Shown here one piece after another: positions 6,931-20,262 of a stretch of 64,000 nt of DNA. Each line of letters starts with the position of its first letter. Positions within the stretch are counted from its first letter, which is position 1. Made by a program: the position numbers and the translations under genes. This DNA comes from Alphaproteobacteria bacterium (GTDB lineage: Bacteria; Pseudomonadota; Alphaproteobacteria; UBA828). Location of the stretch: positions 1,536,001 to 1,600,000 of the forward strand of contig OZ243972.1 of NCBI GenBank assembly GCA_965214705.1, read 5' to 3'. The notes under the pieces are model-generated. The model saw only the letters and a list, made by a program, of their open reading frames with translations. It was not told the DNA's origin and did not search any database.

Positions 6931-8632
<1,702 letters not shown>

Positions 8633-8662
8633 GGGGTTTATATCCGAAGGTAACCGCGACCC

Positions 8663-8669
8663 ATAAATA
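8663..8669 (+). promoter_or_regulatory. T4-type late-promoter-like motif ATAAATA
   Basis: TAAATA at 8664-8669, 5 nt before ATG 8675. The same hexamer occurs at 9943, 10037(-) and 11734(-). Confidence 0.55.
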
Positions 8670-8674
8670 GGACC

Positions 8675-8941
8675 ATGGACACTGAGACGAAACGTCAGAT
8701 CATAGCCGAGCTGAGCGATAAGACGCTCAGGAGCTACCGCAAGAAGACAAAAGGCGACGATGACCGGTGGATCGGTCGAGCCATCGCGAAGGCCAAGATG
8801 ACCGGCAAGGTCGATCCCAACGCGCGCGACGAGACCAGCGTGGAGATCGGCAGCACTGAGCGGGAAGCAAGGGCACGAAGGAAGGCGAAGAAGGCGCTAC
8901 GGAGAGTCGTCAGGAACTTTCGCTCGCGTCGCGAGTCCTGA
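8675..8941 (+). CDS. small basic protein resembling T4-like phage internal head proteins
   Basis: MDTETKRQIIAE-LSDKTLRSYRKK...; K/R-rich; directly behind TAAATA. Confidence 0.6.
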   Translation: MDTETKRQIIAELSDKTLRSYRKKTKGDDDRWIGRAIAKAKMTGKVDPNARDETSVEIGSTEREARARRKAKKALRRVVRNFRSRRES

Positions 8942-9718
8942 CGCACTGGGTTTCAACCACGCCGGGTTCCCAGCGCGAGGCCAGAACAGTACAGGCGCCG
9001 CCATTCCCTTCTTTCTGTAGTCGTCGGGTAGCTTCTTTCTAACGTATCGGTCGAACGCGTCGCCGACGAAGACCTGTCTACCGACGAATCCGAACTTGTT
9101 CTTTCTCTCGTCAAGGGTACGACCTTCGGGTCGCCACGTACAGTCCTCGAACACGGCTACACAGGTCCCGTCGACTATCGCGAGTACGTAGTCCGCTCGA
9201 TTCGCCTTATCGCACTTGATCGTCCAACAGCATCGAACGGCTTCGTAAACACTACCCCATCGGTTGATCGTTTGCTCCTTAGTCTTGATGAAGATAAGTC
9301 GATGATGCGGGTCCGGTTTCATTGGCGGTGGGGCGTATCGTTCCTCGAGTTGTTCGGCAGTCGCCGGACCTCGTTTTCTTGAGTCCTCTCCCGTTGCCAA
9401 GTTGGTCAGCCCGCGCATTGCGTCGATCAATGCCGCCTCGACTTCCTTCGCCGTTTCCTCGCTCATTCCGTGACGGTGCACCACGTGACCCGGTTCGAGA
9501 CCGGCGAGTCGAATCTCGTGTATGATCTCTAGCTTTTCCGTAGGAGGATCGGTCTCCTCGTTCAGTACGAGATCCGCGTTCGCGTGAGCGTATACTCGAT
9601 CACCTTGTCCTCTCCCAACGTAGAAGGTTTGACCGTTTCTTGGATCGATCAGTCGGTATACGTAGTGATCGATCTCTCTCGCGACGCCGCTGGAAAATGA
9701 CTTTCGAACCTTGCCCAT
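8897..9718 (-). CDS. LEM-3-like GIY-YIG nuclease domain protein
   Basis: YVYRLIDPRNGQTFYVGRGQGDRV..H, EVEAALID, LTN. Probable ATG at 9718 (GTG 9730 possible). Confidence 0.85.
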   Translation of the reverse strand: MGKVRKSFSSGVAREIDHYVYRLIDPRNGQTFYVGRGQGDRVYAHANADLVLNEETDPPTEKLEIIHEIRLAGLEPGHVVHRHGMSEETAKEVEAALIDAMRGLTNLATGEDSRKRGPATAEQLEERYAPPPMKPDPHHRLIFIKTKEQTINRWGSVYEAVRCCWTIKCDKANRADYVLAIVDGTCVAVFEDCTWRPEGRTLDERKNKFGFVGRQVFVGDAFDRYVRKKLPDDYRKKGMAAPVLFWPRAGNPAWLKPSASGLATRAKVPDDSP

Positions 9719-9738
9719 ACCACACCCCACGTCCGTTC

Positions 9739-9891
9739 CGGCCCGGCCGTGGTGCCGGGCCGTTGCAGAAACGCACGCGAACGTGAGAAACCCCGCCTAT
9801 TCGCCGGGCAAGGGTGGCCAGACCCAAGTCGGGTAGCAGGCTGTTCTATTCAGCGGGCGACCCGACGGAGCGGGTTCACGCGCGTTTCTGC
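9739..9891 (-). ncRNA. putative structured leader/ncRNA upstream of the GIY-YIG gene
   Basis: 18-bp closing stem 9874-9891/9765-9782, with G-U pairs only on the minus strand; internal hairpins; then a 9-bp hairpin 9739-9762. TTGACG-18-TAGCCT lies upstream. Confidence 0.55.
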
Positions 9892-9953
9892 GGGATCGAG
9901 GCTAGGACGGACGGGAGACGGGCGTCAAGCGACACCGGCGACTAAATAGCGGC

Positions 9954-10030
9954 GGTTCCGTAGCTCAGTTGGATAGAGCAGTTGTCTTCCACGCTTCAGG
10001 TTGCGGGTTCGAGTCCCGCCGGAACCGCCA
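9954..10030 (+). tRNA. atypical tRNA / tRNA-like gene (Arg-type body, TCC at the anticodon position, mismatched anticodon stem)
   Basis: Acceptor GGTTCCG/CGGAACC-G-CCA; D arm GCTC-AGTTGGATA-GAGC; T arm GCGGG-TTCGAGT-CCCGC. The anticodon stem GTTGT/GCTTC has two T-T mismatches. Confidence 0.8.
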
Positions 10031-10059
10031 CGGCAGTATTTATCGAGACGATTCAATGA

Positions 10060-11136
10060 TCAAGCGGCCCGCTTGACCTCGACCTCGACGAGCGATTCCT
10101 GATCGCGTTGATCGTCGAGCGTGAGGGTGTCCTCGATGGTCTCGACGGTCTCCATCGGTGCCTTGGGTCGCCCACGACGAGGCTGCGTCGTGCCGGGCAC
10201 GAGGTCGCTCATCCTGCATCGGCGTCCGGTCATGCCCTTCGCCAGCTCGCCCATCGCGTCGATGGTGTCGAGTTCGCGAGCGTTGTGCCGGCCGGCGAAC
10301 TCCCGAACGTACCGGTCCAGGTGCCGCTGACTCAGGTGGTGGAACGTTCCCTGGTACCCGCGCTTGAGTTGCGCCCAGAAGGACTCGATCCCGTTGGTGT
10401 GCGCCATCCCGCGGACGTACTCGCCGGCGTTGTGGTCCACCGCCTCGTGCCGCTGCGGGATGCCACCGTAGGCCCGCGCGCCGTCCGTGTACACGGTGGC
10501 GTCCTCGCTCGCCGCCTCCGCCACGAAGCCGTGCAGGGTCTTCCTGTCGGTGGACTCCACGACCCTTGCGCGCACCTTCCCGTCGTCCCTGCCACGCGCG
10601 CCCGCGACGACGGCCTTGCCGCCCGCGCCGCTGCCGTAGCGTTCCCGAAGTTCCCTACGCTTCCCGGCGCGCATGTTCTTGCGCTTACCGCCGACGAACG
10701 TCTCGTCCACCTCGACCCCGCCCTCGAACGCCTCGCGCTCGCGGTCTCCCCACGCCTCGCGCAGTCGGTGCCCGAGGTGCCAGGCGTGCTTCTGGGTGAT
10801 GCCGAGGTCGCGGTGCAGCTTCATGCTGGACACACCCTTGAGACTGGCGACGTGCAGGTAGGTCGCCAGCGCCCAGACGCGGTAGCCCAGCTTGCTCGAC
10901 CGCATGACGGTGCCCGTCCTGAGCGAGAACATCGGGCGCTTGGGACAGGCGCGACAGCGGTGGGTCATGGACGGGTGCCTGACCTCGACCACGTTGTCGC
11001 CGCCGCAGCGCGGACCGTTCGGCCAGTAGACGCTCTCGAACCACCGTTCGGCGGTCGCGTCGTCGGGGAACGCCTCGATCACCTCGACGAGGCTCATGCC
11101 CCTGCGGTGCGCCCTCCCGGGCGCTTTTCCTGCCAT
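10060..11136 (-). CDS. IS1595-family (ISXO2-like) DDE transposase
   Basis: VSSMKLHRDLGITQKHAW, VEVDETFVGG, VYTDG, HTNGIESFW, RYVREF..RHN. Confidence 0.93.
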   Translation of the reverse strand: MAGKAPGRAHRRGMSLVEVIEAFPDDATAERWFESVYWPNGPRCGGDNVVEVRHPSMTHRCRACPKRPMFSLRTGTVMRSSKLGYRVWALATYLHVASLKGVSSMKLHRDLGITQKHAWHLGHRLREAWGDREREAFEGGVEVDETFVGGKRKNMRAGKRRELRERYGSGAGGKAVVAGARGRDDGKVRARVVESTDRKTLHGFVAEAASEDATVYTDGARAYGGIPQRHEAVDHNAGEYVRGMAHTNGIESFWAQLKRGYQGTFHHLSQRHLDRYVREFAGRHNARELDTIDAMGELAKGMTGRRCRMSDLVPGTTQPRRGRPKAPMETVETIEDTLTLDDQRDQESLVEVEVKRAA

Positions 11137-11153
11137 GACGAACCCTCCGTATG

Positions 11154-11192
11154 ATGTTATGACAGTATAACATATCTTTGAGAGAAAGTCAA
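11154..11192 (-). promoter_or_regulatory. sigma70 promoter of the transposase with an overlapping palindrome
   Basis: TTGACT-17-TATACT on the minus strand; ATGTTAT-N6-ATAACAT inverted repeat over the -10 box. Confidence 0.7.
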
Positions 11193-11248
11193 GGAAATCA
11201 GTGCGTTATTGGTTGACAACCCGCGTCGAACGGTTACGATGGACTCAT

Positions 11249-11330
11249 GGTGTCGGTCGGATCATTACTCCTTTCCGGAGGAAGGCGTTAGGTTACCTTG
11301 TTCTCCGGTCGTGACTCTCCAACCGGCACC
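11249..11330 (+). ncRNA. putative small hairpin RNA with an internal bubble
   Basis: GGTGTCGGTCGGA/TCCAACCGGCACC outer stem and CCGGAGGAAGG/CCTTGTTCTCCGG inner stem, downstream of TTGACA-16-TACGAT. Confidence 0.45.
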
Positions 11331-11423
11331 TCCCACGTGGAGACGTCGGGATCGAACGTCAAGCGACGGTCGTCATATCGTTTGAGACTAAAAACGACGA
11401 AATCGAGCAATCAGGAAGTCGTT

Positions 11424-11624
11424 GTGACTGATCGGAGGTCGCCGTCCTGCGGATCGTGCCGTCACTGGCTACGGGTGAACGAGGATAACGGGCAGTGCCG
11501 TCACGGTGAACCGATCGATGAGTGACCGGTCACCTGTCGGGACGACCTGTGCGGGGAGTACTCGGGACGGTGGCTGGACGAACCGGACGCCGTCAACGTT
11601 GACCGGGTCTGGCGGGGGGTCTAG
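11424..11624 (+). pseudogene. phage-type Cys-rich small protein with an in-frame TGA
   Basis: CGSCRHW...GQCRHGEPIDE*PVTCRDDLCGEY; the TGA (11523-11525) sits where this motif family normally has Trp. Confidence 0.55.
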
Positions 11625-11629
11625 GGTAT

Positions 11630-11728
11630 GAGCGGTGGCGTCGAGGGCTCGCGGTCGGCGCGCCGGACGGGTACCGTAAGTCGTGCGACGGTCCCGGCCG
11701 TCGTCCAAGACCCTCGGCGTCACTGCTC
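11630..11728 (+). ncRNA. putative multi-branched structured RNA
   Basis: 18-bp closing stem with 3 G-U pairs on the plus strand, enclosing three hairpins. TTGACC-17-TAGGGT upstream; TATAAATA on the opposite strand 5 nt beyond its end. Confidence 0.55.
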
Positions 11729-11798
11729 GTCTCTATTTATAGATCGATTCGAGGGTCGCGGTTACCTTCGGATATAAACCCCATTTATCCTCTCTGTA

Positions 11799-11874
11799 TC
11801 GACATGTTGGAATGAGGTGTCGATGAGATCGACATGTTCGGAACACGTGTCGAGAAAAGTAGGATACATCGACA
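11799..11874. promoter_or_regulatory. tandem palindromic operators upstream of fic
   Basis: TCGACA-N13-TGTCGA at 11799-11823 and 11829-11853, plus a half site at 11869. Confidence 0.6.
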
Positions 11875-12959
11875 TGGTGTTCGATCCCAATCGCCCCTTC
11901 AATGACCTTCCGAACCTGCCGCCGGCTTCGGAAACCGAGACGAAGGCCATTCTTCGCAGCTGCATTGCCGCGCGAACGGCGCTGGCGGAGCTCCGCGTCT
12001 CCGGGAATCTCATCCCGAACCAGGCGATGCTGATCAACTCGATCCCCCTGCTCGAAGCGCAGGCGAGTTCCGAGATCGAGAACATCGTCACGACGGCCGA
12101 CCGGCTGTTCCGCTATGCCAGCGACGCGACGGGTCGAGCCGACCCTGCCACCAAAGAGGCTCTGCGCTACCGCACCGCATTGCACCGCGGATTCGAGATA
12201 CTGAACCGACGGCCGGTTTCGACCTCCGTCGCGGTCGAGGTCTGTCGAACGATCAAGGGAGTGGAGCTGGACGTTCGCAACACGCCGGGAACGGCGCTGG
12301 TGAACGACGCAACCGACGAGGTCATCTACACGCCGCCGGAGGGAGAGGACGTTCTCCGGAGCAAGCTTGCCAACTGGGAGCGCTACATTCACGAGGCCGA
12401 GGAGATCGACCCGCTGATCCGGCTTGCGGTCATGCATTATCAGTTCGAGGCGATCCACCCGTTCGTCGACGGAAACGGCCGGACCGGACGCGTGCTGAAC
12501 CTGCTCTATCTCGTCGACAAGGGTTTGCTCGATATTCCCGTCCTTTATCTCAGCCGGCACATCATCCGGAACAAGGCGCTGTACTACCGGTATCTGCTGG
12601 AGGTGACGACCCGACAGGACTGGGAAGCATGGATACTCTTCATTCTTGAAGCCGTCAGAACGACGGCGGAATGGACGACGGCGAAGATCCGTGCGATCCG
12701 AGAGCTTCTCGACGAGACGGGCACTGCCATTCGGCAGAGGATGCCGAAGATCTACTCCCGGGAGTTGGCGGAACTGATCTTCGTGCATCCCTACTGCCGG
12801 ATCGGCGATGTGGTCAAAGCGGATATCGCCAAGCGCCAGACGGCCGCCGTCTATCTGAAAGCGCTCGCAGCCGAAGGCCTCCTGGAGGAGATCAAGGCGG
12901 GGCGCGAGAACCTCTACATCAACCCGCCGCTCCTGGCGCTTCTGGCCGAGCGCGCATGA
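11874..12959 (+). CDS. fic: Fic family adenylyltransferase
   Basis: EAQASSEIEN inhibitory motif, HPFVDGNGRTGR catalytic motif, C-terminal HTH-like segment. Confidence 0.92.
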   Translation: MVFDPNRPFNDLPNLPPASETETKAILRSCIAARTALAELRVSGNLIPNQAMLINSIPLLEAQASSEIENIVTTADRLFRYASDATGRADPATKEALRYRTALHRGFEILNRRPVSTSVAVEVCRTIKGVELDVRNTPGTALVNDATDEVIYTPPEGEDVLRSKLANWERYIHEAEEIDPLIRLAVMHYQFEAIHPFVDGNGRTGRVLNLLYLVDKGLLDIPVLYLSRHIIRNKALYYRYLLEVTTRQDWEAWILFILEAVRTTAEWTTAKIRAIRELLDETGTAIRQRMPKIYSRELAELIFVHPYCRIGDVVKADIAKRQTAAVYLKALAAEGLLEEIKAGRENLYINPPLLALLAERA

Positions 12960-14011: not shown

Positions 14012-15567
14012 TCAGGTGCGCAGTTGCGGGACCAGTTGCATCGGGTCGGGATGGGCCAGGGTTTCGAGGACGTTCCAGCCTTGCTTTCGAGCGGTGGCTA
14101 TGACGGCACGCAGGATGGCGAAGTCGTAGGCGCCCTGCAGGGTTCGGAAGCAGCCTGATATTTTCTGTCGCAGCTTGGCCATTCGGAGATCTCGCTCGGC
14201 CTCGTTGTTTGTGAACGGGGTGCGCGGGTCCGTGAGGAAGCGCAGGCACCCCTCCTTGTTCTTCTGGAGCCGGCGCGCGAGATTGTGACCGGTTCGGCGC
14301 TTTTTCGCCCGCGCTTCTTGGTCTGGAGCGGCGGCTGCGCTTCGTGGAAGGCGATGGCGCGGTTGAGGGTTCGATCCCAGGCCCGGGAGATTTGGGCGAC
14401 CAGGGAGGCGGGCACGTCGCGGTCATTCTCACGGGCGAAGTGGGCGACCCTGCGGGCGCGCAAGAGGAGGCGGTGCATACTCGTTGCCCATTCCTCCTTC
14501 TCGATGTCGATCAGGGCCTGGAGTTCGCGCAGGTGATGTGCGTTGCAGGCACCGTGGCGGACGCCCTTGATGGTGAAGTAGGGGGCGAAGTCGTCGTGGA
14601 CGAGGATGCCTTGGAGGTTCTTTTCGACATCGCCGCGTCCCTCGCCGATGCGCAGGACGGTGAGCAACGGGGTGCACAGCACGTGGAGCCATCGGGTACG
14701 GGCGGCGATACGCAGGCCGGTCTCGTCGAGGTGCTTGACCGGCGCCTGCGTGCGGATCGGATCGGCGACGTGGTCGAGGAAGCCCTCGAAGCGTTGCGCT
14801 GTGCGCCGGCCCATGGCGGCGATCGTGGCAGTGGAGATGGATACCGCGAAGATGTCGCTCATGAGTTCGGCCAGACGCTTCTCTGGCACGAACTGGGCGT
14901 AGAGCAGGTAGCTCACCCAAGCGGTGATGCGAGGGCCGTACTGGACCGGGGCGGTGACGCCCGGCGGGAAGGCGGCTCGTGTCAGCGTGGCGCATGCGCC
15001 GCAGAGGCAGCGATGGGCGCGGTGTTCGGTGACCTCGAGAGGCTGCGGCTCGGGTACATCGAAGACCTGCCGACAGGCGGGCGCGCCCTGCCGGTCGGCG
15101 TCCGAGAGCTCAGCGCCACAGCCGGATACCCGGAACAAGTCCGGGCAGGCGGGAGGGTGGTGATCGACGACACGGTCCGGGCTGTCGCTCTGGGCAAGTG
15201 TGGTTCCTTTGTGGCCGGGCTGGCCGCCGCTGGGCCTGCCGGACTTTCCGCGCTGGCTTTGGGTGCGCCTCTGGGCACCGTTTTTCTTCTTGAGCCCGTC
15301 GCTGGCGGGGGGCTTGCTGCTTGTGGTGCTGTCGAGGGCCGCGCTGCGCTCGAGTTCGGCGATGCGCTCGCGCAGGGCCGCGTTCTCCCGCTCGAGTGCG
15401 GCATTTTCCCGGACCAGCGCGGCGGCCAATCGCAGCAGCCCCTGGCCCCATTCCCGAACGGCAACGGTGACAGTGGTTGCGAGGGATGATGGCTCGAGAA
15501 GCTCTTTCAGGCAGGAGAAGGCCTCGTCACGGGCGGCGAGGTCCTCGTGCCAGTGCGACACCGTCAC
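14012..15567 (-). pseudogene. IS66 transposase, frameshifted at an A5 run (copy 1)
   Basis: Mirror of copy 2; HLDETG, CNAHHLREL, and PFTNNEAERDLR in the shifted frame. Confidence 0.85.
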
Positions 15568-16244
15568 GTGTTTTCGGCCTCGACGGCCATCATGGCGGCG
15601 AGCACGGCGAGGCGTTCGCCCGGCGGCAAGGCCCGGTGGCGTCGGCCCCAGTTGGCTGCCTTGCGCTTGATGCGCTGGCGGTCGGTGAAGTTCCGGCCTG
15701 CGTGGCTGGCCCAATGCACCCGGTCGGGGGCGAAGTTGAACCAGACGACCTCGGTCCGCACCAGACCCTGGGTCGTGACCTGCAGCGCCAGCCGGCGCCA
15801 TCCCGCCAGCACCTCGTCATAGAGCGCCGACGGATGGCCCGAGATCATGACCTGGCAGGGCAGAGCCTTGAGCAGTTTGAGAAGCGCGACGTGGTCGGCC
15901 TCCTCGTACTCGAAGCGGTAGCGCTGCGAGGAGCGGCGGGTCGCGTGCAGATAGGGTGGATCGCTGTAAACCAGCTCCGGGCCCAGGAACGGGAACGAGG
16001 CCAGGAACTCATGGGCACAGCCGTGCACCAGATCGACCGGGTAATCGCAGACGAAGGCCTCAAGCGCCTGCGCATCGCGGTCGATGCCGATCGAGCGCAC
16101 GGCCGCCGGCTTGCGCCTCATCAGCGCCCCGCCCCCAAGGTGGCTTTCGATGTAGACGGAGTGCGGCGGCATCAGCGCAATCAGCGCCTGGCACAGACCA
16201 GCCGTCGCCTTCGAACCGAAATACCCCATCGACTCCCCCGTCAC
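15564..16244 (-). CDS. DNA adenine methyltransferase (Dam/D12-like), copy 1
   Basis: YFGSK, YIESHLGGGA (SAM binding), YSDPPY. Confidence 0.88.
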   Translation of the reverse strand: MTGESMGYFGSKATAGLCQALIALMPPHSVYIESHLGGGALMRRKPAAVRSIGIDRDAQALEAFVCDYPVDLVHGCAHEFLASFPFLGPELVYSDPPYLHATRRSSQRYRFEYEEADHVALLKLLKALPCQVMISGHPSALYDEVLAGWRRLALQVTTQGLVRTEVVWFNFAPDRVHWASHAGRNFTDRQRIKRKAANWGRRHRALPPGERLAVLAAMMAVEAENT

Positions 16245-18029: not shown

Positions 18030-18710
18030 GTGACGGGGGAGTCGATGGGGTATTTCGGTTCGAAGGCGACGGCTGGTCTGTGCCAGGCGCTGATTGCGCT
18101 GATGCCGCCGCACTCCGTCTACATCGAAAGCCACCTTGGGGGCGGGGCGCTGATGAGGCGCAAGCCGGCGGCCGTGCGCTCGATCGGCATCGACCGCGAT
18201 GCGCAGGCGCTTGAGGCCTTCGTCTGCGATTACCCGGTCGATCTGGTGCACGGCTGTGCCCATGAGTTCCTGGCCTCGTTCCCGTTCCTGGGCCCGGAGC
18301 TGGTTTACAGCGATCCACCCTATCTGCACGCGACCCGCCGCTCCTCGCAGCGCTACCGCTTCGAGTACGAGGAGGCCGACCACGTCGCGCTTCTCAAACT
18401 GCTCAAGGCTCTGCCCTGCCAGGTCATGATCTCGGGCCATCCGTCGGCGCTCTATGACGAGGTGCTGGCGGGATGGCGCCGGCTGGCGCTGCAGGTCACG
18501 ACCCAGGGTCTGGTGCGGACCGAGGTCGTCTGGTTCAACTTCGCCCCCGACCGGGTGCATTGGGCCAGCCACGCAGGCCGGAACTTCACCGACCGCCAGC
18601 GCATCAAGCGCAAGGCAGCCAACTGGGGCCGACGCCACCGGGCCTTGCCGCCGGGCGAACGCCTCGCCGTGCTCGCCGCCATGATGGCCGTCGAGGCCGA
18701 AAACACGTGA
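18030..18710 (+). CDS. DNA adenine methyltransferase (Dam/D12-like), copy 2
   Basis: Identical protein to 15564-16244; its TGA overlaps the GTG of the transposase. Confidence 0.88.
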   Translation: MTGESMGYFGSKATAGLCQALIALMPPHSVYIESHLGGGALMRRKPAAVRSIGIDRDAQALEAFVCDYPVDLVHGCAHEFLASFPFLGPELVYSDPPYLHATRRSSQRYRFEYEEADHVALLKLLKALPCQVMISGHPSALYDEVLAGWRRLALQVTTQGLVRTEVVWFNFAPDRVHWASHAGRNFTDRQRIKRKAANWGRRHRALPPGERLAVLAAMMAVEAENT

Positions 18711-20262
18711 CGGTGTCGCACTGGCACGAGGACCTCGCCGCCCGTGACGAGGCCTTCTCCTGCCTGAAAGAGCTTCTCGAGCCATCATCCCTCGCAACCA
18801 CTGTCACCGTTGCCGTTCGGGAATGGGGCCAGGGGCTGCTGCGATTGGCCGCCGCGCTGGTCCGGGAAAATGCCGCACTCGAGCGGGAGAACGCGGCCCT
18901 GCGCGAGCGCATCGCCGAACTCGAGCGCAGCGCGGCCCTCGACAGCACCACAAGCAGCAAGCCCCCCGCCAGCGACGGGCTCAAGAAGAAAAACGGTGCC
19001 CAGAGGCGCACCCAAAGCCAGCGCGGAAAGTCCGGCAGGCCCAGCGGCGGCCAGCCCGGCCACAAAGGAACCACACTTGCCCAGAGCGACAGCCCGGACC
19101 GTGTCGTCGATCACCACCCTCCCGCCTGCCCGGACTTGTTCCGGGTATCCGGCTGTGGCGCTGAGCTCTCGGACGCCGACCGGCAGGGCGCGCCCGCCTG
19201 TCGGCAGGTCTTCGATGTACCCGAGCCGCAGCCTCTCGAGGTCACCGAACACCGCGCCCATCGCTGCCTCTGCGGCGCATGCGCCACGCTGACACGAGCC
19301 GCCTTCCCGCCGGGCGTCACCGCCCCGGTCCAGTACGGCCCTCGCATCACCGCTTGGGTGAGCTACCTGCTCTACGCCCAGTTCGTGCCAGAGAAGCGTC
19401 TGGCCGAACTCATGAGCGACATCTTCGCGGTATCCATCTCCACTGCCACGATCGCCGCCATGGGCCGGCGCACAGCGCAACGCTTCGAGGGCTTCCTCGA
19501 CCACGTCGCCGATCCGATCCGCACGCAGGCGCCGGTCAAGCACCTCGACGAGACCGGCCTGCGTATCGCCGCCCGTACCCGATGGCTCCACGTGCTGTGC
19601 ACCCCGTTGCTCACCGTCCTGCGCATCGGCGAGGGACGCGGCGATGTCGAAAAGAACCTCCAAGGCATCCTCGTCCACGACGACTTCGCCCCCTACTTCA
19701 CCATCAAGGGCGTCCGCCACGGTGCCTGCAACGCACATCACCTGCGCGAACTCCAGGCCCTGATCGACATCGAGAAGGAGGAATGGGCAACGAGTATGCA
19801 CCGCCTCCTCTTGCGCGCCCGCAGGGTCGCCCACTTCGCCCGTGAGAATGACCGCGACGTGCCCGCCTCCCTGGTCGCCCAAATCTCCCGGGCCTGGGAT
19901 CGAACCCTCAACCGCGCCATCGCCTTCCACGAAGCGCAGCCGCCGCTCCAGACCAAGAAGCGCGGGCGAAAAAGCGCCGAACCGGTCACAATCTCGCGCG
20001 CCGGCTCCAGAAGAACAAGGAGGGGTGCCTGCGCTTCCTCACGGACCCGCGCACCCCGTTCACAAACAACGAGGCCGAGCGAGATCTCCGAATGGCCAAG
20101 CTGCGACAGAAAATATCAGGCTGCTTCCGAACCCTGCAGGGCGCCTACGACTTCGCCATCCTGCGTGCCGTCATAGCCACCGCTCGAAAGCAAGGCTGGA
20201 ACGTCCTCGAAACCCTGGCCCATCCCGACCCGATGCAACTGGTCCCGCAACTGCGCACCTGA
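18707..20262 (+). pseudogene. IS66 transposase, frameshifted at A5 (19969-19973), copy 2
   Basis: SSKPPASD, GGQPGHKG, HLDETG, LVHD, CNAHHLREL. The C-terminus PFTNNEAERDLRMAKLRQKISGCFR is in the -1 frame. Confidence 0.85.

Follow-up and report, generated by a model that had tools for sequence, protein, structure and literature searches.

Why should four copies of an AT-only hexamer, TAAATA, stand at the borders of the parts of a single transposon in GC-rich DNA? The question is raised by a window of 64,000 nucleotides (nt; positions 1,536,001 to 1,600,000 of contig OZ243972.1, GenBank assembly GCA_965214705.1, from an alphaproteobacterium of the UBA828 lineage), which holds a 3150-bp insertion sequence (IS) of the IS1595 family with a phage-defence nuclease gene and a tRNA gene as cargo. 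The original prediction took the hexamers for late promoters of a T4-type phage. We propose instead, at a probability of about 0.5, that these boxes would be a lineage-specific boundary or junction signal of a sublineage of IS1595. We infer this function from what can be read directly: the anatomy of the element, its homologies, a motif that is not random and its recurrence in sister elements.

The element lies between perfect inverted repeats (IRs), as had been predicted, and contains the boxes at the following places:

8633-11782, 3150 bp: IS1595-family transposon with perfect 30-nt IRs
8633..8662, no strand: left terminal IR (IRL), GGGGTTTATATCCGAAGGTAACCGCGACCC, 30 nt, 100% complementary to 11753-11782
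8663..8670, plus strand: box 1, ATAAATAG, abutting IRL and 4 nt before the ATG of orf88 (hexamer 5 nt before the ATG at 8675)
9942..9949, plus strand: box 2, CTAAATAG within CGACTAAATAG, 4 nt before the tRNA (hexamer 5 nt before base 1, at 9954)
10036..10043, minus strand: box 3, ATAAATAC within CGATAAATAC, 5 nt past the CCA of the tRNA and 14 nt after the transposase stop
11733..11740, minus strand: box 4, ATAAATAG (a full TATAAATA with position 11741, read from 11741 to 11734), 12 nt inside the right IR
11753..11782, no strand: right terminal IR (IRR), pairing with IRL

From IRL to IRR, the order is orf88 (plus strand), the GIY-YIG nuclease gene (minus), about 220 nt of non-coding DNA, the tRNA gene (plus), the transposase gene (minus) and 616 nt of non-coding DNA.

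Counted on both strands, TAAATA occurs four times in the window, and all four copies are inside the element, at 8664(+), 9943(+), 10037(-) and 11734(-). Dinucleotide shuffles of the element alone contain 0.166 copies on average and never reach four (0/2000); shuffles of the whole window contain 0.61 and reach four once in 100. These shuffles rule out a chance origin of the boxes. The hexamer is rare elsewhere too: the genome that carries the element (G000; contigs C1, C2 and C3) has 83 copies in 7,920,168 nt. The other 79 occur in assorted contexts, several of them as parts of two repeat families, and a general class of host promoter is thereby ruled out. Of the 83 copies, 8 (for example at C1:350864, C1:2993371, C2:489438 and C3:52908) belong to one repeat family that ends in ...GTCGGGCCATTGAGGGTTGGACATCTAAATAAAGAGGCTTCC and probably represents the end of another IS.

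Extended by one base on each side, the four sites read (A/C)TAAATA(G/C) and are arranged as two inverted pairs, the outer one just within the IRs (at distances of 0 and 12 nt) and the inner one on either side of the tRNA. Besides the boxes, the only AT-only runs of at least 6 nt in the element are the TTTATAT of the IR and one TAAAAA. The 5-mers directly downstream of the boxes, GGACC, GCGGC, CTGCC and GAGAC, are GC-rich. The spacings of 5 to 6 nt noticed at boxes 1 to 3 hold, the hexamer of box 3 lying 6 nt beyond the CCA end (10030), and box 4 indeed stands as a full TATAAATA at the end of a hairpin, at the 3' base of a long predicted stem (about 11622-11739). Whichever strand is folded, boxes 2 and 3 are predicted to pair with each other and to extend the acceptor stem of the tRNA; on the minus strand, the fold of this unit has z=-3.32 and is equalled in 0/200 shuffles. 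Box 3 is also in frame with the transposase, five codons past its present stop, as GAT AAA TAC.

Sister elements reveal a longer form of the box. Judged by the copies in the genus, the true motif is CGA(C)TAARTAG, present there as TAAGTAG or TAAATAG. Of the five matches to the pattern CGAC?TAA[AG]TA[GC] in the 7.9 Mb of the genome, this element holds two, sister IS1595 copies another two (C1:2144271 and C1:1952138), and one lies elsewhere. The sister at C1:2144226-2146629, whose transposase is 63% identical, has no TAAATA and, where box 1 would stand, reads CGACTAAGTAGgattcATG. Three elements have the box in frame as the Thr-Lys-stop (ACT AAR TAG) of the transposase, and the ATG of the next open reading frame (ORF) follows 4-5 nt after it: at C1:1952138, at locus L011 of genome G020, the closest relative in another species, and at locus L284 of genome G013, whose box was found by a separate pattern search. 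The lysine codon is AAA in G013 versus AAG in G020, a synonymous difference. A 19-mer, CGACTAAGTAGGATTCATG, is identical in G000 and G020 before different ORFs. Among about 95 distinct transposase stop contexts, three fit a loose box pattern, two of them the boxes of G000 and G020; the third, L091 (35% GC), is not the box and was taken as chance. Since the sister boxes are TAAGTAG or TAAATAG and encode the Thr-Lys-stop of the transposase, the box appears to have arisen inside the IS lineage.

Locus L011, from contig C7 of G020, also holds a second box-tRNA-box unit (1283-1407). There, cgaTAAATAG stands 6 nt before a tRNA and CTACTTAGG 5 nt after it. Boxes on both sides were found for 2 of the 68 tRNAs examined, namely this one and that of our element. 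The IS part of L011 (1.65 kb) contains four TAARTA versus 0.23 expected, a number reached in 0/1000 shuffles. The flanking boxes pair on either strand in predicted folds of this unit as well, with z=-3.13 on the strand antisense to the tRNA. In G013, the same boxes flank sequence that is not a tRNA.

Direct repeats accompany both tRNA units. In our element, TCAAGCG at 9925-9931 and 10060-10066 flanks a 128-nt segment with the tRNA; the left copy overlaps the -35 of the leader promoter described below and the right copy contains the transposase stop codon. In L011, CCCTCCCC is present on both sides of a 126-nt unit (at 1260 and 1394). These repeats could mark an insertion. Read as target duplications, they would make the tRNA unit a mobile mini-element, a reading that we considered and did not adopt: the tips of the segment are unlike each other and unlike full IS ends, and the non-tRNA sequence between the same boxes in G013 weighs on this idea too.

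The tRNA itself is unusual.

9954..10030, plus strand: tRNA with anticodon UCC on an Arg(UCU)-type body (ARAGORN; Rfam tRNA, 60.3 bits)

With 77 nt, G73 and the GGAUAGAGC D-arm found in host Arg tRNAs, the body is not that of a tRNA-Gly; host Gly tRNAs have 74-75 nt and U73. It is 75% identical to host tRNA-Arg(UCU). An ordinary tRNA-Arg(UCU) was rejected as well: the body fits, but the anticodon is UCC and not UCU, and the Rfam alignment places two U.U mismatches in the anticodon stem. Over its first 27 nt, the tRNA matches at least 125 tRNA genes on 120 metagenome contigs without a difference; the commonest variants among these all have the loop CUUCUAA, that is, anticodon UCU. Because of its Arg-type body and this 27-nt identity to metagenomic Arg(UCU) genes, we regard the gene as a putative foreign-type tRNA-Arg(UCU) whose anticodon has been changed to UCC. 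The boxes are not the usual context of such a tRNA: among 111 metagenomic genes for tRNA-Arg(UCU) that share this 5' half, not one is preceded within 20 nt by TAAATA or directly followed by TATTTA. The tRNA of L011, 76 nt long, carries the anticodon GGA on a Cys-like body that is 78% identical to a tRNA-Cys of the host type. The two cases, an Arg body with UCC and a Cys-like body with GGA, suggest that anticodon-switched tRNAs may be a recurrent cargo of the sublineage.

Taken as junction signals, the four TAAATA would be copies of the sublineage box CGA(C)TAARTAG that were carried along with the modules, each an AT-rich island marking a module border in GC-rich DNA. With TAA and TAG in two frames, a box would halt incoming translation. 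Where paired boxes enclose a structured RNA, the pairing of an A-tract with a U-tract could insulate or process the neighbouring transcripts, and box 4 would serve as the U-rich tail after the long plus-strand hairpin. A weak -10-like start function of the box is possible, and the nuclease would be expressed from its own sigma70-type promoter through a conserved leader RNA. A bidirectional intrinsic terminator is a hairpin between an A-tract and a U-tract. The box units resemble one in that a strongly structured RNA lies between TAAATA (5') and TATTTA (3'), which pair in folds of either strand, and in that box 4 follows a long hairpin; they differ in that the structure between boxes 2 and 3 is a tRNA and not a simple hairpin. 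A terminator scan did not call the boxes.

Several points weigh against this reading. The U-tracts of the boxes are short and broken up, and those at the tRNA are separated from the stem by 5-6 nt. For box 1, the element offers neither an ORF nor a hairpin upstream; stop-restart and termination therefore both fail to account for it, and it may be a relic. The exact spacing of 5-6 nt to an ATG and to base 1 of the tRNA is what a -10-type promoter would give. Selection for the box is unproven: in the family's 44 genomes, the 11-mer CGAYTAARTAG is not more frequent than a reversed control. Finally, the box is narrowly distributed. We sampled 80 loci of the distant family, 60 of them with recognisable IR pairs (transposase identity at most 59%). 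None of the 60 has a box beside an IR, and 38 lack TAAATA altogether, which restricts the box to a small sublineage. Among the distant relatives with a GC content of at least 0.55, none has more than one TAAATA, and the transposase-side ends of distant relatives carry ordinary -35/-10 pairs. The boxes are thus ruled out as an IS1595-wide feature by the 60 related elements, and the conservation of the motif in IS1595 relatives, which the original prediction named as a test, extends only to the few members with a TAARTAG box.

The rival that prompted this work holds that the boxes are T4-family late promoters, of the TATAAATA type without a -35, read by a gp55-type factor, so that orf88, the tRNA and two antisense or read-in transcripts, towards the nuclease and the transposase, would be switched on only during infection by a T4-like phage. 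Late promoters of T4, as far as the sections of PMC2988020 drawn on here describe them, have TATAAATA at about -13 to -6, are read by gp55 with gp33 and the gp45 clamp, and tolerate A(-13) and a few single deviations. The geometry fits: a TAAATA core 5 nt before the ATG and before base 1 of the tRNA puts a TATA box at -13 to -6, as in that account; site 4 is a perfect TATAAATA, and the other three, CATAAATA, ACTAAATA and GATAAATA, differ only at -13/-12, where ACTAAATA of site 2 matches the a/gC variant of phage Aeh1 (PMC2988020). No -35 is visible upstream of any box by eye, and the promoter scan lists none; every box faces a different unit; the hexamer is not in general use by the host; and the cargo is homologous to an enzyme that protects Escherichia coli from T2, T4 and T6. 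But the sister elements have TAAGTAG as the coding end of their transposase, so the box doubles as coding sequence, and the 5 nt after all boxes are GC-rich, where T4 late promoters are AT-rich (PMC2988020). The nuclease has an ordinary promoter of its own. Phage context was sought and not found: blastn of all 3,150 bases against phage collections matched the tRNA alone (Arg, Lys and Asp tRNAs of cyanophages and jumbo phages, at 77-80% identity), and neither an IR 23-mer nor the anticodon-arm pattern of the tRNA has a match in viral contigs. Phage-borne homologues of the nuclease (17 records, 32-39% identity) are all from jumbo phages, of Serratia, Klebsiella, Pantoea, Pectobacterium and Pseudomonas, and not from T4-likes, and none has a TAAATA-type box upstream. 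Nor does the arrangement recur in any of the 10 other CMoRE-like loci of the class. The late-promoter idea is weakened, not disproved, and we consider it very improbable. Equally improbable is its wider form, in which the transposon is an infection-sensing defence unit whose boxes are read by a phage gp55-like factor or by another non-housekeeping specificity. If it were true, late phage transcription would fire a leaderless small protein, the tRNA with its Arg body and Gly anticodon could corrupt or decoy translation, and extra transcription would run into the nuclease and transposase genes, so that the element could attack replicating phage DNA or hop into it; the L011 unit, in which a Ser anticodon sits on a Cys-type body, would show tRNAs with switched anticodons to be recurrent cargo of this IS lineage.

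Three other explanations leave phages aside. The boxes could be weak -10-like elements without a -35 for the RNA polymerase of the host or of a donor, giving a leaderless orf88 mRNA and a tRNA transcript that begins near base 1, with the inverted partners as by-products. The combination of a box, 5-6 nt and a functional 5' end does recur, at the orf88 ATG, at both tRNAs and at the ATGs of three sisters, and the 5'-side box is TAAATAG in both tRNA units. We nevertheless think this unlikely, as TAAATA and TAAGTA lack the final T of a -10 that TATACT, TACGAT and TAGCCT, the -10 elements in this transposon, all have; there is neither a -35 nor a TG extension; and with the box inside the transposase frame in three sisters, stop-restart coupling is simpler. 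It is harder still to accept that the boxes are functionless relics of transposase 3' ends (ACT AAR TAG), scattered recently by recombination, deletion and nesting. Such an origin would agree with the Thr-Lys-stop of the three sisters, with box 3 lying in the transposase frame, and with a copy that is rearranged, having no target-site duplication and flanks that do not continue each other, while its perfectly identical IRs suggest youth. Random relics, however, are unlikely to bracket two different tRNAs in two species, each with an inverted pair at 5-6 nt, and four boxes in 3.15 kb, like the four in the 1.65-kb IS part of the sister, far exceed the shuffles. A quite improbable alternative makes the boxes binding sites of a protein, be it a nucleoid-associated xenogeneic silencer with a preference for AT-rich islands in GC-rich DNA, a regulator encoded by the element or the transposase itself, which would keep foreign cargo quiet or mark sub-terminal transposase sites. 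The boxes are nearly the sole AT-only runs of at least 6 nt and come as inverted pairs, in cargo of 53-60% GC versus 67% for the host, and site 3, TCGATAAATA, resembles the high-affinity motif of H-NS. Yet the unequal distances from box to IR (0 versus 12 nt) are unusual for sub-terminal transposase sites, 60 family members do without such sites, and the coding role in the sisters accounts for the sequence without any binding protein.

The assignment of the element to IS1595, and its description as a transposon with cargo, are borne out by its IRs and its transposase.

10060..11136, minus strand: IS1595-family DDE transposase, 358 aa (Pfam DDE_Tnp_IS1595 PF12762 and NCBIfam transpos_IS1595 NF033547)

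The protein matches PF12762 with E=5.3e-38 (130.9 bits, cut-off 27) and NF033547 with E=1.6e-54 (185 bits, cut-off 75); the zinc ribbon PF12760 at its N-terminus stays slightly below the cut-off (23.4 versus 25.4 bits). Relatives align only to about residue 313, leaving a non-homologous C-terminal tail of about 45 aa. The start of IRL, GGGGTTTATATCC..., agrees with the IR consensus of the 60 related elements, GGGRATTATATAC.... The GC content is 61.9% overall, 53-62% in much of the element, 67-72% in the transposase gene and 67% in the whole genome.

Members of IS1595 with passenger genes are known as "transporter IS" (tIS; Siguier, Gagnevin & Chandler 2009, as cited in the part of PMC3129680 that we draw on). 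The present element resembles them by its DDE_Tnp_IS1595 domain and family-type IRs and by the 8-bp duplication, usual in the family, of its sister copy. Most of the 60 related elements span 2-5 kb, and so they too carry extra DNA. It differs in its cargo of a phage-defence nuclease, a tRNA and RNA modules, in the 616 nt between IR and transposase start versus about 70-100 nt in most relatives, in the missing target duplication and in the AT-rich boxes, which are not a family feature. A cargo-carrying IS1595 is thus of a known kind, and an IS-borne CMoRE homologue is a new member of it.

Two neighbouring genes define the insertion site.

6931..8595, minus strand: RecD2-like helicase gene of the left flank, its N-terminal part missing (Pfam, PADLOC, other contigs)
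11817..12959, plus strand: SoFic-type Fic defence gene of the right flank (PADLOC SoFic, E=8e-117; Pfam Fic_N, Fic and SoFic-like_C)

In the helicase, Pfam HHH_RecD2 begins at profile position 38 and PADLOC typeIV_RecD at 180, and in contigs of other organisms the gene extends past the point corresponding to 8628. On this comparison, the element landed in a RecD-like helicase gene beside the SoFic gene and cut it. The 8-bp target-site duplication is missing here, the flanks being TGAATATC and ATTTATCC, and is present in the sister copy C1:2144226-2146629, which has GATCGAGA on both flanks. As the flanks are not halves of one gene and no duplication is present, this copy has probably been rearranged since insertion.

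No relative of the whole element was found among the 60 relatives or in the family's 44 genomes. The only trace in the latter is a 52%-identical nuclease in another context, in genome G005. The best transposase elsewhere is 58-59% identical, and on plasmids only short pieces of transposase and tRNA match the element. Contigs from four sequencing runs contain the identical element in samples of three studies, with no variant of it and no empty site among them.

Mobile elements abound in the neighbourhood. At 14098-15801 (minus strand) and 18473-20176 (plus strand), 2.7 kb apart and inverted, lie two transposase genes of the IS66 family that have the same length and the same Pfam scores; they may form a composite transposon. 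Between IRR and the start of SoFic (11798-11879), three copies of ATCGACATG(T/G)T(G/C), 30 and 40 nt apart and each within a TCGACA..TGTCGA palindrome, resemble operator sites. Elsewhere in the genome, the stretches C1:1156992-1161492 and C3:119193-123693 give identical blast matches for transposase and leader RNA, and therefore a segment of several kilobases is duplicated between contigs 1 and 3.

The cargo gene bears out the part of the original prediction that spoke of phage defence.

8897..9718, minus strand: homologue of GIY-YIG type IV restriction nucleases of the PD-T4-3/CMoRE type, 273 aa, start ATG at 9718 (PADLOC, PDB, Pfam, PHROG)

The protein matches the PADLOC profile PDLC04031 with E=4.8e-65 (residues 5-245 on profile positions 3-252 of 256) and PDB entry 9U75 with E=1.5e-49 (residues 7-247 on chain positions 10-260, covering both domains); 9U7U is similar (about 1e-49), and Pfam LEM-3 GIY-YIG and PHROG 5356 match as well. 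By these alignments, it is a full-length PD-T4-3/CMoRE homologue. PD-T4-3 was reportedly first described by Vassallo et al. in 2022. In the sections of PMC12923530 used here, it is renamed CMoRE and degrades DNA with 5-hydroxymethylcytosine (5hmC) or glucosyl-5hmC; it guards E. coli against T2, T4 and T6, whereas T4 with ordinary cytosine escapes. The same source names the GIYxY-YIG tyrosines, the catalytic Arg/Glu blocks and an autoinhibitory loop of four consecutive acidic residues.

Aligned with the E. coli chain, our protein keeps the tyrosines as Y19, Y21 and Y33, and the blocks HYVYRLID...TFYVGRGQGDRVYAH, RV..H and EVEAALIDA are conserved. The alignment spans the nuclease domain and the C-terminal sensing domain, and the gene is, like CMoRE, a single-gene system in a defence-rich neighbourhood. 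In contrast, identity with the E. coli proteins is only moderate; the loop is NEETD versus DDDD, acidic but not with four consecutive acidic residues; a C-terminal extension of about 25 aa is present; and the gene is IS-borne, behind a structured leader.

Homologues are numerous (4749 at E<=1e-10) but patchily distributed, being present in 10 of 401 sampled genomes of the class, as is usual for defence genes. The 10 other CMoRE-like loci of the class have neither an IS1595 transposase nor the leader RNA, and an unrelated tRNA-Pro lies near one of them. A single-sequence query of viral and metagenome contigs returned no close relative of the nuclease.

The nuclease gene is preceded by an RNA that is conserved far beyond this element.

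9732..9891, minus strand: structured 5' leader RNA with helices P2, P5, P3, P4 and P1, then a Shine-Dalgarno-like GGGG and the ATG (covariation)
9899..9928, minus strand: candidate sigma70-type promoter of leader and nuclease, -35 TTGACG (9928 to 9923), 18-nt spacer, -10 TAGCCT (9904 to 9899)

The promoter was read by eye, the consensus scan not listing it. TTGACG-17-TAGCCT also precedes the leader in the sister copy C1:2144226-2146629 and in locus L120, and in all three copies read, the motif (spacer 17 or 18 nt) stands 7 nt before the first helix. A search with nhmmer gave 53 matches to the leader, 14 of them in the element's own genome including this copy. The region is also present in 16 of the 80 transposase-associated loci, from metagenome-assembled genomes of several phyla, and many more copies exist in the genus. 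Among the other copies are those in G000 at C1:447431, 1161360, 1907760, 1951075, 2114675, 2145002, 2976801 and 4028024, at C2:564021 and at C3:123561, 329975 and 916768, and in loci L109-L128.

In an alignment of 24 sequences, 91.0% of the cells of the five helices are paired versus 79.3% in shuffles, and 79 cells carry double changes versus 22; the observed values were reached in 0/500 shuffles, and slid controls gave 34-51% paired. With the minus strand as RNA, G.U cells outnumber A.C cells 36 to 10, which favours the minus strand as the transcript; these counts and the gene context speak against a plus-strand RNA at 9731-9905. Every copy has a Shine-Dalgarno-like run and a start codon downstream on the same strand and is therefore taken as a 5' leader. 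Elsewhere it stands mostly before lipoprotein genes: a lipobox-like signal peptide was seen in 21 of 44 crude calls of the downstream ORF.

No Rfam family describes the leader, and the copy in the window stays without a match at E<=10. Of 12 further copies scanned, one scored 33.7 bits, below threshold, against sRNA-Xcc1 (RF02221; gathering score 53). This RNA is described, in the part of its description drawn on here, from integron cassettes, transposons and genomic islands, and in Xanthomonas cassettes upstream of symE. Our leader shares with it the core GAAUACAA..CC / GGCGAAUA internal loop and an outer helix, GUCGGGUCG/CGGCCCGGC, that is pairable in 24/24 leader sequences; both RNAs are associated with mobile elements, exist in several copies and immediately precede a gene. 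However, the leader is about twice as long, mostly precedes lipoprotein genes and contains P2, an additional long stem with covariation whose formation competes with the sRNA-Xcc1-like fold. Because the conserved outer helix is incompatible with P5 and P1, the leader may switch between two folds. Near leader copies in other genomes of the genus (L126, 2231-2318 and 3107-3197; L111, 2336-2417) lie a tRNA, a tRNA-Sec and a group II intron domain, the last a match near threshold (38.6 bits versus a gathering score of 40).

Ordinary sigma70-type promoters had been claimed for the transposase, the nuclease and two RNAs. They are predicted for the first two and for one RNA region, that on the right.

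8675..8941, plus strand: orf88, a highly charged orphan ORF of 88 aa, overlapping the 3' end of the nuclease gene convergently
11164..11192, minus strand: predicted transposase promoter TTGACT-17-TATACT (consensus scan 10/12, TG before the -10)
11213-11240, plus strand: strong predicted promoter TTGACA-16-TACGAT (consensus scan)
11213..11740, plus strand: region of about 490 nt downstream of that promoter, with the long hairpin at about 11622-11739 followed by UCUCUAUUUAUAG (promoter scan, fold)
11418-11525, plus strand: ORF of 35 codons with a CxxC...C pattern, GTG start and GGAAG 5 nt upstream

The codon periodicity of orf88, read by eye from the sequence, is coding-like. It matches no Pfam, NCBIfam, PHROG or PADLOC family, and a search of 5.8 billion proteins returned only orf88 itself. 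The right-hand region folds with z=-2.09 on the plus strand, including the long 3' hairpin; its minus strand folds no better than shuffles (z=-0.76). No homologue of the region was found in its own genome or in the loci compared, and its small ORFs, the CxxC one included, match no protein family.

In limited literature searches and in Rfam, we found no description of a junction box that recurs at the module borders of an IS1595 sublineage, of box-tRNA-box units with tRNAs whose anticodon mismatches their body, or of a covarying multi-copy leader with two competing folds before transposon cargo and many lipoprotein genes. If the boxes prove to be phage-late promoters, the element would be a natural defence wired to the phage's own transcription programme. 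As it stands, a simple IS has brought a homologue of a CMoRE-type restriction enzyme to a site beside SoFic, and transposons that move ready-made anti-phage genes between genomes in this manner help explain how defence islands are assembled.

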